Made by a program: the position numbers and the translations under genes. From Escherichia phage 2H10, in the sequence record NC_049950.1: 46,288 nt of DNA, one strand, 5' to 3'. The notes beneath the pieces are model-generated. The model was not told the DNA's origin and did no database searches. It was given only the letters and a program-made list of their open reading frames with translations. How positions within the stretch are numbered: position 1 is the first letter of the stretch; every line of letters starts with the position of its first letter. Positions 23,718 to 45,238 of the stretch are shown piece after piece.

Positions 23718-24292
23718 TGGCATTCAGAATGAGTGAACAACCACGGACCATAAAAATTTATAATCTGCTGGCCGGAACTAATGAATTTATTGGTGAAGGT
23801 GACGCATATATTCCGCCTCATACAGGTCTGCCAGCAAACAGTACCTATATTGCACCGCCAGATATTCCGGCTGGCTTCGTGGCTGTTTTCAACAGTGATG
23901 AGGCATCGTGGCATCTCGTTGAAGACCATCGGGGTAAAACGGTTTATGATGTAGCGTCAGGGGACGCGTTATTTATTTCTGAACTCGGTCCGTTACCGGA
24001 AAATGTTACCTGGTTATCGCCGGAAGGGGAGTTTCAGAAGTGGAACGGCACAGCCTGGGTGAAAGATGCAGAAGCAGAAAAACTGTTCCGGATCCGGGAG
24101 GCGGAAGAAACAAAAAACAGCCTGATGCAGGTAGCCAGTGAGCATATTGCGCCGCTTCAGGATGCTGCAGATCTGGAAATTGCAACGGAGGAAGAAATCT
24201 CGTTGCTGGAAGCATGGAAAAAGTATCGGGTATTGCTGAACCGTGTTGATACGTCAACTGCACAGGATATTGAATGGCCAGCACTGCCGTAG
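23717..24292 (+). CDS. tfa: Tail fibre assembly protein
   Basis: [34 protein letters not shown]..., lambda Tfa. Confidence 0.9.
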
Positions 24293-32194: not shown

Positions 32195-32557
32195 TTAACG
32201 ACCAGCTGCGCGGAGTTTTCCGTCAGGTTCACCGGCAAGAGTCAGTAATTGTCCCTGGTCTTCCTGCAGAATAGTCAGGCGACCACCGCGATTGACATAC
32301 ATCGGCGTTTCGGTGGTGTCTTCTTCGGAAATTTTCCCGCGGTTAGTTGGGCGAACATATGAGAGTTTGTGTTTGATTTTCACACGGTTCTCATCAAACG
32401 GTTCGATTTCCAGATTGAGTGAGACCTTCCCTTTGGTTTTCGTGTTCATCACACCGGAAGCGACTTCACTTAGAACTGCGCCGATTTTGGTTTCAAATAC
32501 GCCGCCGTCCAGCTCCCCGATAAATGCCTGCACATCAGTACTGCGTTCACTAGCCAT
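32195..32557 (-). CDS. yfdP: YfdP-like protein
   Basis: MASERSTDVQAFIGELDGGVFETKIG... (120 aa) with RBS GAGGAG 7 nt upstream. The upstream part of the 197-aa ORF is leader read-through. Confidence 0.75.
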   Translation of the reverse strand: MASERSTDVQAFIGELDGGVFETKIGAVLSEVASGVMNTKTKGKVSLNLEIEPFDENRVKIKHKLSYVRPTNRGKISEEDTTETPMYVNRGGRLTILQEDQGQLLTLAGEPDGKLRAAGR

Positions 32558-33152
32558 TTTGCTGCTCCTCATCATATCGACCCTGCAAGGTCGGTTAGTT
32601 TCTCCACAAAACAGAGAAGAACACCTGCGGTGGCAGCCGCCCGGATGGATTGGGTTATGAGCCCGTCGTCCGATGATGCTCTTCTCTGTTTTGTAAAAAG
32701 AGCGGTACCAGCCGGAAGCAAGTGTACAAACTGGTACCGCCAAAGCAGTGGCTGTTGTGGTGGGGTTGTCACTCAGGCGTATGGTCAACCTGACAATCCG
32801 GTGTCCTCAACGGGGAAAGAGTAACCCAGCCATACTTACCGCCGCGCCATTTCGCGGATGACCACAACGCTGAGAGCACTTAGCCAGTTACGGCACCACA
32901 CTTTGTCGCGGCTCCATAAATGCCCTCATCGTTGCACCCTGGTCTCTTCCCAGGCGTCAAACCGGATCGCCACGCTGGTTAGGCGTCTTATCAGCATCAT
33001 CATTGACTTGCACATTCCGGCTACCTGGTTTGTTTGCCCTAGCAAGGAGTGGATTGTCCCCTTTAACGTCCCCAGACCGCTAACGACGCATGTGCCATAC
33101 GCCGTGTTACAACCAAATTTTGTTTGAATCTTGCCTGCCTCATGTTTCTTTT
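32558..33152 (-). ncRNA. ORF-less, highly structured pL leader (~600 nt) between pL and the first early-left gene
   Basis: No minus-strand ORF with a start codon and RBS. Contains a 15-bp perfect stem (32606-32620 / 32680-32694), a terminator hairpin and several further GC-rich hairpins. Confidence 0.4.
32693..32740 (-). terminator. Rho-independent terminator inside the pL leader (tL-like)
   Basis: Minus strand: GCGGTACCAG, 19-nt loop, CTGGTACCGC, followed by TCTTTTTA. Confidence 0.7.
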
Positions 33153-33158
33153 GGATAC

Positions 33159-33186
33159 ATTATGTATCTCATGGGTACATTGTCAA
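33159..33186 (-). promoter_or_regulatory. pL candidate with overlapping operators
   Basis: Minus strand: TTGACA, 16 nt, CATAAT. The palindrome GATACATTATGTATC (33154-33168) overlaps the -10. Confidence 0.65.
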
Positions 33187-33189
33187 GTA

Positions 33190-33213
33190 TAAAAAAACCT
33201 GCCGAAGCAGGTT
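33190..33213 (-). terminator. Rho-independent terminator after the repressor gene
   Basis: Minus strand: AACCTGCttcgGCAGGTT followed by TTTTTTT. Confidence 0.8.
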
Positions 33214-33225
33214 CATAAATATTGA

Positions 33226-33900
33226 TTAGGCCTTTATTGTGTATCTTCTTGGTTTTCCCGAGAAAATCACTGTACCAATTATAGAGCAATTACCGTTAAT
33301 CTTAATGTAAGGCTCAGGCCAGTTTGGGTTTAATGCTTTGAGATAACGCTGTGTTCCATCTTCTATCAATCGCTTGAAGGTGGTTTCGCCTGTATCGTGC
33401 ATCAATGCAATAACGTCGTCACCGTGGCAGGCAGGGACTTCGGGATCAACAAAAATCATGTCTCCAGGGCGGTACTCATCAATCATTGAATCACCAATCA
33501 CCCGCAAGATATAAGTCATTTCGCCACAGGGTACAGGGCAGGGATACGTTTCTGCTGTGCTCAAATCAACCTCAGAATAGCCAACTTCTTTCCATGCTCC
33601 GGCCTGTACCCATGATATGACAGGGACTAACGTTATTTGTTTGTTAGTGATTGAAACATCAGGTTTTTTTGTGATGTTCGTTGTCTGGTGTTCTTGATCA
33701 AGCCATCCGACAGGCAGGTCGAAACATTTTTCGATGTGCCGTGCCATGCTGTCACCGATATTTTTAGTAGCGCCATCCCCCATAAACCTGCTGGTTTGGG
33801 TTGGCTCGCGATCAATCATGGTGGCAAAGGATGAATTTCCGCCAACACCATCTCTCAGTTTTCTGGCGTTAGACCGCCGGATGTCATGGATTGTTTTCAT
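33226..33900 (-). CDS. cI: CI-type prophage repressor (HTH plus S24 LexA-like autopeptidase domain)
   Basis: 224 aa. The C-terminus has VISWVQAGAW...RVIGDSM...FKRL (Ser/Lys dyad context). Divergent from the cro-like gene. Confidence 0.9.
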   Translation of the reverse strand: MKTIHDIRRSNARKLRDGVGGNSSFATMIDREPTQTSRFMGDGATKNIGDSMARHIEKCFDLPVGWLDQEHQTTNITKKPDVSITNKQITLVPVISWVQAGAWKEVGYSEVDLSTAETYPCPVPCGEMTYILRVIGDSMIDEYRPGDMIFVDPEVPACHGDDVIALMHDTGETTFKRLIEDGTQRYLKALNPNWPEPYIKINGNCSIIGTVIFSGKPRRYTIKA

Positions 33901-34222: not shown

Positions 34223-34786
34223 ATGAGGCTAACCGTGGGTAAGTATCACTGGAAAGTAGAAAAACAGCCTGAGTGGTACGTGAAAGCTGTCAGAAAAACT
34301 ATCGCAGCGTTGCCGGGTGGTTACGCTGAAGCAGCTGACTGGCTGGATGTAACAGAGAACGCATTATTTAACCGCCTTCGTGCCGATGGCGATCAGATTT
34401 TCCCGCTGGGATGGGCAATGGTTTTACAGCGCGCGGCTGACACTCACTACATTGCGGATGCTGTCGCACAGTCTGCTGGTGGGGTGTTCGTATCGCTTCC
34501 TGAAATTGAGGAAGTAGAGAACGCCGATATAAACCAGCGCCTGCTGGAAGTCATCGAACAGATCGGGAATTACTCAAAGCAGATTCGTTCGGCAATCGAA
34601 GATGGGGTCGTGGAGCCACACGAGCAGACAGCAATTAATGATGAGTTGTATCTGTCAATTTCGAAGCTCCAAGAGCATGCAGCACTGGTCTACAAAATCT
34701 TTTGCGCTCCAGAAAAGAGTGACGCCCGCGAGTGTGCAGCTCCGGGCGTCGTGGCGTTTTGTGTCTGTGGAGAAACTAACGCATGA
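34223..34786 (+). CDS. CII-type regulatory protein (Phage_CP76 / e14 YmfL-like)
   Basis: 187 aa, ...NALFNRLRADGDQIFPLGWAMVLQRA...DINQRLLEVIEQIG... Resembles YmfL/CP76 from memory. An alternative GTG start at 34235 has a GAGG RBS. Confidence 0.65.
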   Translation: MRLTVGKYHWKVEKQPEWYVKAVRKTIAALPGGYAEAADWLDVTENALFNRLRADGDQIFPLGWAMVLQRAADTHYIADAVAQSAGGVFVSLPEIEEVENADINQRLLEVIEQIGNYSKQIRSAIEDGVVEPHEQTAINDELYLSISKLQEHAALVYKIFCAPEKSDARECAAPGVVAFCVCGETNA

Positions 34787-35619
34787 ACAGTTTAACGGCA
34801 AATAACCGTTTGTCGCAACAGCTGGTGGTCAGTGTCGCTGAACACCTGTTGTTACGGCATGAATGCAGATTACCAAATCACCTGGCTGTAAGTAACCACA
34901 GAGAACTTTACCTGACTGTGGGGGGCGAGTTGTGCGGGAACTTAACCGCTGGTTTCGTGACGGAAGAGGGCTTTATGTCCATGTTATTCGTTGGGAACCA
35001 GAAACACAGCGCGTTATCTATCTTCGCAAAGACTACCCGCATGAGTGCTTTAGTCCTTTGTGGAAATTCAGGCGTGATTTTGTTGAGTGTGAAGGACCAC
35101 CAGCACATTGATTCTGCCATTCCGGGACGTTACACTGTTCAGGCACCTTATAAAGCGGGTGACGGGATTGGCGTCCTGGAAATGTTATCGGCGATATATG
35201 ACGCGCCAGCGTCTTTTTTATCGTCTGTGTCTGTGCACACCCAAATTATGGTGGGCTGGACGGGGGCACCGAAAGGTGCGCCGGTTTCCGATAACGCCGG
35301 TTACGCCAACCCCGTTCAGTTCACCACCAGCGAAATTGGCGTTTCCGGTGGTGAAGGTAATTCACTGTTATCGGAGGCTGCCATCATGGCTACTGTCCCA
35401 GCCCTCACTCGTCTGAATGATGAAGACTTACATAAACTCAGTTATGTAACAACTGCACTACGTGCTCTGCGCAAGGTAACTCTTTCGGATCCGCAGGCGC
35501 ATCAGGTTTTGGTAGAAACCCTTCTTAACTTGCAGGCTGAACGTATTCGTCTGGCGGATAAGGCTAATTTTCATATTCACCGTCTCCTGAATATCAGCGG
35601 AGGGCATCGTCATGCTTAA
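34783..35619 (+). CDS. Unrecognised 278-aa early-right protein
   Basis: ATGA overlap with the cII-like gene. No motif I can name. Confidence 0.6.
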   Translation: MNSLTANNRLSQQLVVSVAEHLLLRHECRLPNHLAVSNHRELYLTVGGELCGNLTAGFVTEEGFMSMLFVGNQKHSALSIFAKTTRMSALVLCGNSGVILLSVKDHQHIDSAIPGRYTVQAPYKAGDGIGVLEMLSAIYDAPASFLSSVSVHTQIMVGWTGAPKGAPVSDNAGYANPVQFTTSEIGVSGGEGNSLLSEAAIMATVPALTRLNDEDLHKLSYVTTALRALRKVTLSDPQAHQVLVETLLNLQAERIRLADKANFHIHRLLNISGGHRHA

Positions 35620-41074: not shown

Positions 41075-41374
41075 AAAAATTCCTTAATACTGATAACTGG
41101 GCGCACTATACACACGTTCCTGAAGAAAGCTATAGTTTTTTGATGGGGTTGAAGATGGCTGGATGTCTAAAATAAACATTGCTTCATATGTTCAACTATG
41201 CGTTAATGATTGCGTCGGTTTGAAGAACAGACGATATACGAAGTAGTTTACTAAAGCAGTTCTCATTTCAGGTGTTATTCACTTATTCCTTCTTTGAGTC
41301 TCTCCAATTAAGTACGAAGTCGTTTCTGTTATACAAGCCATTTATGCCGAAAGGCTCAAGTTAAGGAATGTAGA

Positions 41375-41590
41375 ATGTCAAATAAAATGACTGGTTTAGT
41401 AAAATGGTTTAACGCTGATAAAGGTTTTGGCTTTATTTCTCCTGTTGATGGTAGTAAAGATGTGTTTGTGCATTTTTCTGCGATTCAGAATGATAATTTT
41501 CGAACCTTATTTGAAGGTCAAAAGGTTACCTTCTCTGTAGAGAGTGGTGCTAAAGGTCCTGCAGCAGCAAATGTCATAATTACTGATTAA
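41375..41590 (+). CDS. cspB: Cold shock protein CspB
   Basis: 71 aa, [53 protein letters not shown]... Confidence 0.95.
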
Positions 41591-41871
41591 AATTCATAGT
41601 TTGTCTGTATACGATAACGAAGAAGGCTGATGCCTGAGTGGAGATACAGACAGAGTGGTGAATATTGGATCTCTTTAATAAATAGTAAGGAGGTCCAATA
41701 CATGAAACAATGGCCAGCATATTTGGCAATAACTTAATCAGGAAAAGTATGCTAACCATTGTGGTGAAGTGCAGGTTTGCTGCATGAATAGTTTTACAGC
41801 AGAAGCTAACTGCTGGCATAGCAAAACAAAGTGCGTAAGTGGATGACTCCCACAAAAAGCACCACAATATT

Positions 41872-44463: not shown

Positions 44464-44826
44464 ATTAATATTAAATCGGATTATTTTTAGCGCTGAATGT
44501 GAAATTTAAATAAAAAGGACTCTTCCATGAGTCAAAATTCTTGAAATCTTAAGGGTAAGATAAAAGGTCATTAGACAGAATGACACGTTTTATTAATAAA
44601 TAAAGCTATTGTTTCATTCGTGTGTTTTTCTTTACAAAAGTAATCCTTGCTATGGTTGGTTAATCATGCGTTAATGGTGTTCTGGTTTGTTACAAAATTA
44701 TCTGAAGCAGTCATTGTTATAATTTTATTATTTGTACCTCTTGAGATTTCCTTGTTGGTTTTTCTCTCTGATATTTTTTTTCGGACCATTCTGCCCAAGG
44801 GCTAACTTCTTCAAAAGGTAATAATG

Positions 44827-45039
44827 ATGTCTAACAAAATGACTGGTTTAGTGAAATGGTTTAACCCTGAAAAAGGTTTTGGTTTCATCACGCCGAAAGA
44901 TGGTAGCAAAGATGTGTTTGTCCATTTCTCAGCTATTCAGAGCAACGATTTCAAAACGTTAACTGAGAATCAGGAAGTCGAATTTGGTATTGAGAACGGA
45001 CCTAAAGGCCCCGCGGCTGTTCATGTAGTGGCACTTTGA
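44827..45039 (+). CDS. cspI: Cold shock protein CspI
   Basis: [70 protein letters not shown], 70 aa. Confidence 0.95.
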
Positions 45040-45238
45040 GGTAGAAAATATTACAAACCATATTCACTTTAGATGCCCGTGTTGCCATGGTTCTCAGTAT
45101 AGAACATCATCTTTTGATGTTTCTGACAGGAATCCTTTCGGGGCAAAATGTATCTTTTGTAAATCAATGATGATTACATTTGATAATATTTCACAATACT
45201 TAAATGTTAGCCGTCTGTCGTTAGATTTAAGAAAGTGA
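45029..45238 (+). CDS. Zinc-ribbon ORF downstream of cspI lacking a canonical start codon (YmcF/YnfQ-like position)
   Basis: The open frame ...[59 protein letters not shown] has no ATG, GTG or TTG upstream of the CxxC pair. The nearest in-frame ATG codons lie after the second CxxC. Only ATT codons (45050, 45062) lie upstream. Confidence 0.35.

Follow-up and report, generated by a model that had tools for sequence, protein, structure and literature searches.

The leader of the early-left operon of Escherichia phage 2H10 (NC_049950.1) is located between the promoter pL and yfdP, the first early-left gene, and comprises four RNA structures under purifying selection, which are swapped as cassettes at fixed joints. 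The whole stretch of 46,288 nt was analyzed (here referred to as the window; all coordinates are those of the window), and the leader is transcribed on its minus strand throughout. Upstream of pL, the list of open reading frames (ORFs) and Pfam identified a cI-like repressor gene with a Peptidase_S24 domain (33900-33226, minus), and the hairpin terminator of this gene (33214-33195, minus) is situated between it and pL. The promoter itself is of the sigma-70 type (TTGACA, 16 nt, CATAAT; 33186-33159, minus), lies where an earlier interpretation made from the letters alone (the sequence-only reading) had placed it, and was the best-scoring promoter site of the region in a consensus scan, with 11 of 12 positions matching. 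Transcription from pL probably starts near 33152. The first plausible gene start downstream is the ATG of yfdP at 32557-32555, which leaves ~600 nt in between and agrees with 32558 as the proposed lower bound of the leader. The genes yfdP (32557-32195), yfdQ (32129-31305), and yfdR (31239-30640), all on the minus strand, were identified from the ORF list, RefSeq names on homologs, and Pfam, which assigned no family to YfdP, DUF2303 to YfdQ, an HD/YfbR-like domain to YfdR, and DUF551 to two proteins of the left operon, beyond whose genes an integrase gene is found.

To determine how the leader is distributed, a 661-nt query was compared by BLAST with phages and 5,426 complete E. coli genomes. 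It broke up into independently occurring pieces, which we named, in order from pL, A (together with a helix, P6), B, T, and C. Full-length relatives with 97 to 98% identity were present in phage cdtI, phage Ayreon, and a set of Stx2c phages, and the leader of mEp460 was identical to that of the window apart from one exchanged block, in which module B is replaced by a cassette termed B'. Covariation in homologous leaders, a check that the sequence-only reading had proposed, revealed compensatory base changes in A (12 pairs), B (8 pairs), and C (7 pairs), as well as in P6. These dozens of compensatory pair changes, together with strand-specific G-U pairs, indicate that selection acts on the RNA structure. 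In agreement with the earlier description of the leader as highly structured, the minimum free energy of 613 nt of leader was −233 kcal/mol, compared to −202 ± 5.7 kcal/mol in dinucleotide shuffles (z = −5.5; none of 20 shuffles was equal).

The leader is noncoding. As had been noted, the ~600 nt contain no ORF: the three sense frames have 14, 6, and 6 stops, a conserved reading frame was looked for across leader homologs but none was found, open frames vary between homologs, and the hairpin inserts that distinguish them have lengths that are not multiples of 3. Neither the ORF list nor Pfam searches of the left-operon proteins yielded an N-like product, which is consistent with the proposed lack of an N gene. 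ARAGORN detected no tRNA genes in the window. An Rfam scan, likewise recommended earlier, placed no part of the leader in a known family: there were zero matches at gathering level and in three permissive scans. Public records carry short ORFs called as hypothetical proteins over modules A, B, T, and C (loci L002, 2655-2774 and 2876-3070; L238, 1171-1539 and 1581-1724; L359, 1361-1671; ymfH of e14), one of them labeled "frameshifted". Because of the RNA covariation and the unconserved frame, these calls are probably spurious. Such annotations, and the fact that module boundaries are recombination joints, are what could be expected of a decayed coding gene, e.g., a frameshifted N-like pseudogene, or of a sequence conserved for a function at the DNA level, such as recombination boundaries or operator sites. 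A decayed gene was ruled out by the unconserved frames, the insert lengths, and the negative Pfam result, and since compensatory pairs and strand-specific G-U pairs also speak against a DNA-level function, we give this explanation as a whole next to no weight.

The core of module A (33104-32938, minus; alignment A2) is formed by helices P1, P2, P4, and P5, the variable hairpin P3, and the pseudoknots PK1 and PK2. Module A begins ~48 nt past the predicted pL start and represents a pseudoknotted RNA that has a length of ~185 nt and folds into five helices, with two additional pairings between loops (PK1, GGCACAU/AUGUGCC; PK2, AACC/GGUU). Alignment A2 comprised 26 diverse homologs from lambdoid, P1-like, and epsilon15-like phages, in which 97% of the paired cells were complementary, compared to 25 to 45% with slid partners. 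The 12 pairs with compensatory change accounted for 61 cells, and none of 500 shuffles reached the observed values. Since G-U pairs are frequent, the minus (pL) strand is the functional one. PK2 covaries, reading AACC/GGUU in the window and CACC/GGUG elsewhere, including a copy from Kosakonia. Hairpins singled out by the sequence-only reading were found as described, i.e., CCTGGgaagagaCCAGG at 32954-32938 and CCGCGaaatggCGCGG at 32854-32839.

An nhmmer profile of module A matched the window only at 33114-32914 (E = 1e-42), and no second copy was found after pR. Homologs with 70 to 88% identity were found in phages of three kinds. In P1, P7, and D6, module A lies directly 3' of a tRNA gene (tRNA-Ile in P1 and P7, where it precedes ban); in P1, it is located 2.3 kb downstream of the operon's terminator, directly before ban. 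In epsilon15-like phages (phiV10, SPN1S, Tyrion, and BUCT711), it lies directly 5' of tRNA-Arg. The third group is made up of lambdoid phages whose repressors differ considerably and in which the module is part of the pL leader. Among 132 copies whose contexts were compared, 30 preceded tRNA-Arg, 19 followed tRNA-Ile2 (CAU), 23 were followed by module B, and 60 had other contexts; of the latter, those examined mostly had a repressor gene 95 to 145 nt upstream. Module A starts 95 to 145 nt past the stop codon of a cI-like repressor gene on the same strand in the window and at least 7 other immunity types, which places it just after pL. All lambdoid phages with module A that we examined were without an N gene at the usual place. 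Genes flanking the module had nothing in common between the lambdoid, P1-like, and epsilon15-like contexts.

Module A was present in 1,826 of 5,426 complete E. coli genomes (about one third), with 545 copies on plasmids. Viral contigs were scanned for a single invariant 16-mer, which fixed the 3' strand of PK1, and at least 120 loci were retrieved. When genome contigs were scanned with a loose gapped pattern, 114 of the 120 loci listed were chance matches, and the six real copies were all from Enterobacterales. The records listed had no annotated feature at the module A site, and no Rfam family matched a 231-nt query covering it, even at E ≤ 10. In phiV10 (L004, 2384-3020), a stretch between late genes contains a TTGACA promoter-like site, module A, tRNA-Arg, a small hairpin, a DicF-like terminator, a second terminator, and a Gp49-family gene. 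This self-contained unit of ~600 nt, as found in epsilon15-like phages, looks like a moron.

Module A is followed by helix P6 with a variable insert (32930-32871, minus), which was recognized as a perfect helix in homologous loci. Here, the tail after P5, GAUGAGGGCA (32930-32921), pairs with UGCUCUCA (32878-32871) to give GAGGGCA/UGCUCUC, and the 3' end of the helix is only 2 nt (GC, 32870-32869) away from the junction with the next cassette. A perfect P6 helix of at least 8 bp was found in 85 of 101 loci with a GUUGUR junction, with compensatory variants such as GAGAGCA/UGCUCUC, GAGCGCAC/GUGCGCUC, and AAGAGCAU/GUGCUCUU, while the distance from its 5' strand to the junction ranged from ~60 to 240 nt. 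In a few lambdoid loci (L093 and the similar L037 and L050), a bidirectional-looking terminator takes the place of P6 ~20 to 60 nt past module A; in L093, it is followed by a perfect rrn-type boxA (UGCUCUUUAACAA). In L031, L126, and L093, convergent genes separate module A from the early-left genes.

The position of module A is reminiscent of the put RNAs of HK022 and its relatives, to which the sequence-only reading had compared the leader. Both are structured RNAs just after pL in lambdoid phages without N, and the action of both would be independent of the downstream sequence. Since put RNAs have no Rfam entry, we built a covariance model from six of them. It recovered the untrained HK022 putR (36 bits, E = 4e-8) but matched neither the window nor the other loci that contain A or B; without filters, the score within 32400-33300 peaked at 1.9 bits (E about 1). 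This insignificant top alignment fell within the interior of module C (32683-32620), where UCGGACGACGGGCUCAUAACCCAAUCCAUCCGGGCGG loosely resembles GUCGAACGGCGCGACAGUAAACCAUGCGUCGGG, probably by chance. BLAST with HK022 putL or the annotated HK639 putL found ~22 put phages, none of which contained module A, and the module A profile had no nhmmer match in the HK022 and HK639 sequences. A pairwise alignment with put evaluated against shuffles gave p values of about 0.03 and 0.16, which was also taken as evidence against homology. Stem I of put (CGGCG...CGUCG) is like the first hairpin of module A in the window; however, this likeness is not family-wide, because that stem of module A covaries (G-C to A-U at one pair). 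In addition, put RNAs are ~75 nt long with two stems and a highly conserved sequence, whereas module A, at ~185 nt, folds into five helices, has two loop pairings, and, unlike put, is also found beside tRNAs in P1-like and epsilon15-like phages. Membership of the leader in the HK022-type put family was therefore rejected by covariance model, nhmmer, and BLAST.

Independently of family membership, a put-like mode of action is possible for module A. As a cis-acting processive antiterminator, the nascent RNA would bind RNA polymerase and cause it to read through T and later signals, thereby replacing N. The put RNAs act in this way through the zinc-binding domain of the beta-prime subunit. Its position just after pL in the window and at least 7 immunity types would suit such a role, as would the missing N gene in all examined lambdoid phages with the module. 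A terminator follows within 500 nt in 85 of 106 unique module A loci (80%; 73 of these terminators are of a GGCGG type described below and usually 200 to 250 nt away), in some loci the early-left genes are separated from module A by a convergent gene or a bidirectional terminator, and the module has no fixed downstream partner, as expected of an element that modifies the polymerase. On the other hand, homology to put was not detectable by any of the three methods, and there is a single copy with none after pR. The position of the P1 copy, 2.3 kb past the operon's terminator and directly before ban, and that of the epsilon15-like copies, at the head of a ~600-nt unit amid late genes, likewise correspond to contexts that do not call for antitermination. 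Moreover, the tRNA processing sites that flank module A suggest its release, and efficient read-through would block the termination-dependent formation of a small RNA (sRNA) 3' end. We thus regard antitermination by module A as unlikely. For lambda-type N/nut, no N-like ORF or Pfam family was present after pL. Antitermination of the boxA/Nus type was rejected as well: the boxA-like CGCUCUUUUUACAA at T is unconserved in homologs, and the motif is not systematic downstream of module A. Literature on RNAs of the P1 ban operon, on a tRNA-like element at dicF, and on antitermination in mEp phages contained nothing relevant that we could find.

Module B (32868-32754, minus), delimited by BLAST identity and alignment A4, is topologically a cloverleaf: a closing stem, GUUGUGG/CCACAAC, surrounds three hairpins, and a six-base contact, GUAUGG/CCAUAC, connects the segment between hairpins 1 and 2 with the loop of hairpin 3. 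In alignment A4 (20 homologs), 93.9% of the paired cells were complementary, compared to 34 to 55% with slid partners. In the Qin prophage of E. coli K-12, the 123 nt that directly precede dicF share 88% identity with module B, and in P1, the beginning of the "dicF-like region" behind Pban shares 76%. This annotated P1 region, just after Pban (L003, 230-383), consists of the 3' half of module B and a terminator (GCCCAUCUUCGGGUGGGC) whose sequence is not related to that of DicF; what is homologous to Qin is the cloverleaf and not the sRNA.

The module occupies a slot that can also be filled by a tRNA. In epsilon15-like phages, the same junction, AGUGCUCUCAGCGUU followed by GUGG, leads straight into a real tRNA-Arg, whose acceptor stem replaces the closing stem of the cassette, and in mEp460-type prophages the slot contains B' with the closing stem GUUGUGGUGA/UCACCACAAC. 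Module B, tRNA-Arg, and B' thus interchange at identical boundaries. In mEp460 itself (L238, 1466-1659), module B is replaced by B' (GUUGUGGUGAAUGCGCAGGC...CACCGGUCACCACAAC), and B'-type cassettes with variable interiors recur in L010, L020, L029, L048, L062, L063, and L066. In one genome contig (L330, 4358-4400), the 3' end of a B'-type cassette (CCGGCCACCACAAC) is directly upstream of module A, so that the order of cassettes is not fixed.

Module T (32753-32694, minus) was identified by a DicF match and its identity with sRNA-17 (see below) as the 3' domain of a DicF-family sRNA together with an intrinsic terminator. In line with the terminator reported earlier for the region 32740-32693, upstream of the first early-left gene, its arms GCGGTACCAG (32740-32731) and CTGGTACCGC (32711-32702) are followed by UCUUUUUA up to 32694, with the U-tract at about 32699-32695, a pyrimidine-rich loop, and a hairpin energy of about −19 to −22 kcal/mol. 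An alternative GCTCTT/AAGAGC pairing, which had been thought to sequester the U-tract, has no bearing on termination, as its second strand is made only once the U-tract has been transcribed. T shares 16 of 17 nt (94.1%) with nt 13 to 29 of DicF. In every locus containing B, a variable linker is followed by a GGCGG...CCGCC hairpin and a U-tract with a hypervariable, pyrimidine-rich loop, of which DicF is one version.

The genomic arrangement around T corresponds to that of dicF. Both units belong to an early-left-type operon behind a repressor-controlled promoter and have module B directly 5', then a GGCGG-type terminator hairpin whose loop is rich in pyrimidines and which is followed by a U-tract, and finally a long stem. 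They differ in that the loop sequence of T is not that of DicF, and in that the unit of the window forms an untranslated leader directly after pL, behind module A, whereas dicF of Qin is located behind ydfABC. In Qin, DicF is made by termination plus processing by RNase E and RNase III, and a read-through transcript of dicF is reported to be cut by RNase III to yield a 72-nt DicF (PMC5069750). Hfq binding and a 5' end generated by RNase E are further hallmarks of DicF.

A second counterpart is sRNA-17 of E. coli K1 RS218, a 193-nt RNA for which 5' and 3' rapid amplification of cDNA ends (RACE) and northern blotting were reported by Song et al. 2020 (PMC7719688). It is encoded in an mEp460-like prophage, in the same slot of a near-identical leader, and its last ~70 nt, including the terminator hairpin, are identical to those of the window; its body is B', whose sequence bears no relation to that of module B in the window. 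In mEp460, the segment that opens with the closing stem and ends with the U-tract measures 194 nt. Since this span fits the 193-nt RNA with its identical 3' end, sRNA-17 is B' plus T. The corresponding segment of the window would be 32868-32695 (174 nt), with ends predicted by analogy to this one published RACE and northern study. sRNA-17 was described as an independent gene, and module A, the cassette structure, and the relationship to DicF were not noted there (PMC7719688). Of the options put forward by the sequence-only reading, a riboregulatory leader or noncoding RNA fits these observations, as the T hairpin belongs to the DicF family and is common to sRNA-17.

A conserved pseudoknotted module B that is always directly 5' of an intrinsic terminator, as in Qin, P1, and lambdoid phages, is also the usual layout of a transcriptional riboswitch. 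B (or A) could accordingly be an aptamer that recognizes a metabolite, a tRNA, or a protein, and the leader a sensor-controlled attenuator gating T, yfdPQR, and later early-left genes. However, the linker between B and the terminator varies from ~10 to 45 nt without a conserved alternative pairing with B, the hypervariable terminator stem and loop are a better fit to an sRNA seed than to an expression platform, and a real tRNA or B' can replace B with the rest unchanged. Together with the zero Rfam riboswitch matches, this renders a sensory function of the leader quite improbable, somewhat more so than antitermination by module A.

Module C (32694-32606, minus; alignment A5) consists of a long stem around two inner hairpins. 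The 15-bp perfect stem noted previously, ACAAAACAGAGAAGA (32694-32680) with TCTTCTCTGTTTTGT (32620-32606), was confirmed and can be extended to 17 bp by G-U and C-G pairs. In alignment A5, 92.5% of the paired cells were complementary, compared to 37 to 53% with slid partners. In Qin, a different long stem (AAUUUUGUGAUG...CAUCACAAAAUU) begins at the same place past the dicF terminator, and the RNase III cut must lie inside it, because the DicF product has 72 nt. By analogy, module C is a putative RNase III substrate. Downstream, the initiation region of yfdP (32605-32555, minus; read from the sequence) contains a hairpin, CGACCUUGCAGGGUCG (32592-32577), a Shine-Dalgarno sequence, GAGGAG (32570-32565), and the ATG (32557-32555), and is conserved jointly with module C in homologs.

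Taken together, we favor a reading in which the pL leader is a punctuated, multimodule precursor of noncoding RNAs that also attenuates the early-left operon, with a rough probability of 55%. The pL transcript would contain, in this order, A closed by P6, B, T, C, and the ribosome-binding site of yfdP. A sizable fraction of transcripts would largely end at T and give a product of ~460 nt. This product might be cut by an RNase P-like activity, or alternatively by RNase E, at the 5' edge of the closing stem, between GC and GUUGUGG (32869 and 32868), which would free an A RNA and a B+T RNA of ~174 nt (32868-32695), the counterpart of sRNA-17. In the latter, the pyrimidine-rich loop may serve as a DicF-like antisense seed for a target other than ftsZ. 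Transcripts reading through past T would enter C, where a cut by RNase III would part the sRNA from the yfdPQR message, as in the dicBF operon of Qin, and yfdP and the following genes would be translated from these C-cleaved read-through transcripts. T would attenuate the early-left operon in that most transcripts end there and only read-through reaches yfdP. The processing enzymes and the efficiency of termination are predictions. Punctuation is supported by the fact that module A adjoins tRNA-Ile in P1 and P7 or tRNA-Arg in epsilon15-like phages, and by the length of sRNA-17, which fits a 5' end at the base where the closing stem begins and gives the one indirect hint of cleavage at this site.

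Several observations weigh against this reading. The two strands of PK1 are invariant in the sample and thus without covariation support, which is partly by construction, as the 16-mer used for the viral-contig scan fixed one of them. Neither ARAGORN nor the tRNA model of Rfam (E ≤ 10) recognized module B as a tRNA, so that its recognition by RNase P is only an analogy. T did not match the Rfam DicF model (RF00039) at E ≤ 10, including with a 191-nt query, whereas dicF of Qin, used as a positive control, scored 76.7 bits. Targeting of ftsZ by T was rejected, with an RNAduplex energy of −24.8 kcal/mol compared to −38.5 kcal/mol for DicF, and with 90% of shuffles being equal or better. The T hairpin could be a terminator and nothing more. 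Furthermore, the 5' end of sRNA-17 was assigned by its authors to its own ArcA-regulated (ArcA-repressed) promoter and not to processing (PMC7719688); our consensus scan found no good promoter consensus upstream of this 5' end.

Most likely, module A exerts its function as a separate RNA by means of a host factor: the three phage groups share no phage protein gene that goes along with it, which makes a host partner the most economical assumption. More tentatively, and with slightly less than even odds, module A with P6 may constitute an undescribed class of double-pseudoknotted phage RNA of ~185 nt that is found in three unrelated groups of temperate enterobacterial phages (lambdoid, P1-like, and epsilon15-like), is made early, excised in the manner of a tRNA, and acts on a host component, for which RNA polymerase, an RNA-processing enzyme, or a defense factor would be candidates; as part of the same proposal, sRNAs of the DicF family would generally arise from "tRNA-punctuated" precursors in which B or B' replaces the tRNA.

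The DicF relationship of such hairpins and the existence of sRNA-17 were already known. Module A, the cloverleaf upstream of dicF, the exchange of tRNA, B, and B', helix P6, and the conserved structure of C are absent from Rfam 15 and from searchable papers, but Faubladier & Bouche 1994 may cover part of the sequence similarity. On the preferred reading of the leader as an RNA precursor, the immediate-early left transcript of many N-less lambdoid prophages, including Stx2- and Cdt-converting phages, would open with RNA products and not with a protein. For 30 years, work on DicF has dealt with a 53-nt sRNA; it would belong to a family whose members differ in their seeds and have in common a conserved cloverleaf cassette and a processing syntax that have so far not been described. 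A new family of structured RNAs would be represented by module A, which occurs in one third of the complete E. coli genomes as well as in the model phage P1 and carries no annotation in the records that we examined. Should its target be a host factor, an RNA would be added to the tools of phage takeover or antidefense; if it modifies RNA polymerase, it would represent a second, unrelated solution to RNA-mediated antitermination.

Regulatory RNAs of phages that are processed by RNase P include C4 of P1 and P7 and CI of P4, and stable RNAs are encoded in the tRNA cluster of T4; in each case, tRNA-processing enzymes release a noncoding RNA from a tRNA cluster or from the leader of an operon. Modules A and B have no sequence or model similarity to C4, and their own processing is a prediction. 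The window does contain a C4 antisense RNA (35244-35331, plus; 83 bits) together with IsrK (35143-35219, plus; 55 bits), both at Rfam gathering level and both inside a 278-amino-acid ORF with a Pfam Ash domain (34783-35619). The same pair is found in Ayreon, and it looks like an immI-type RNA module of the P1/P7 kind in the pR operon. Full-length Rfam matches were also obtained for IS009 RNA (24060-24258, plus; 221 bits) and for two cspA thermoregulator leaders (41214-41653 and 44669-45085, both plus; 156 and 112 bits), which point to two cold-shock-protein genes in the late region.

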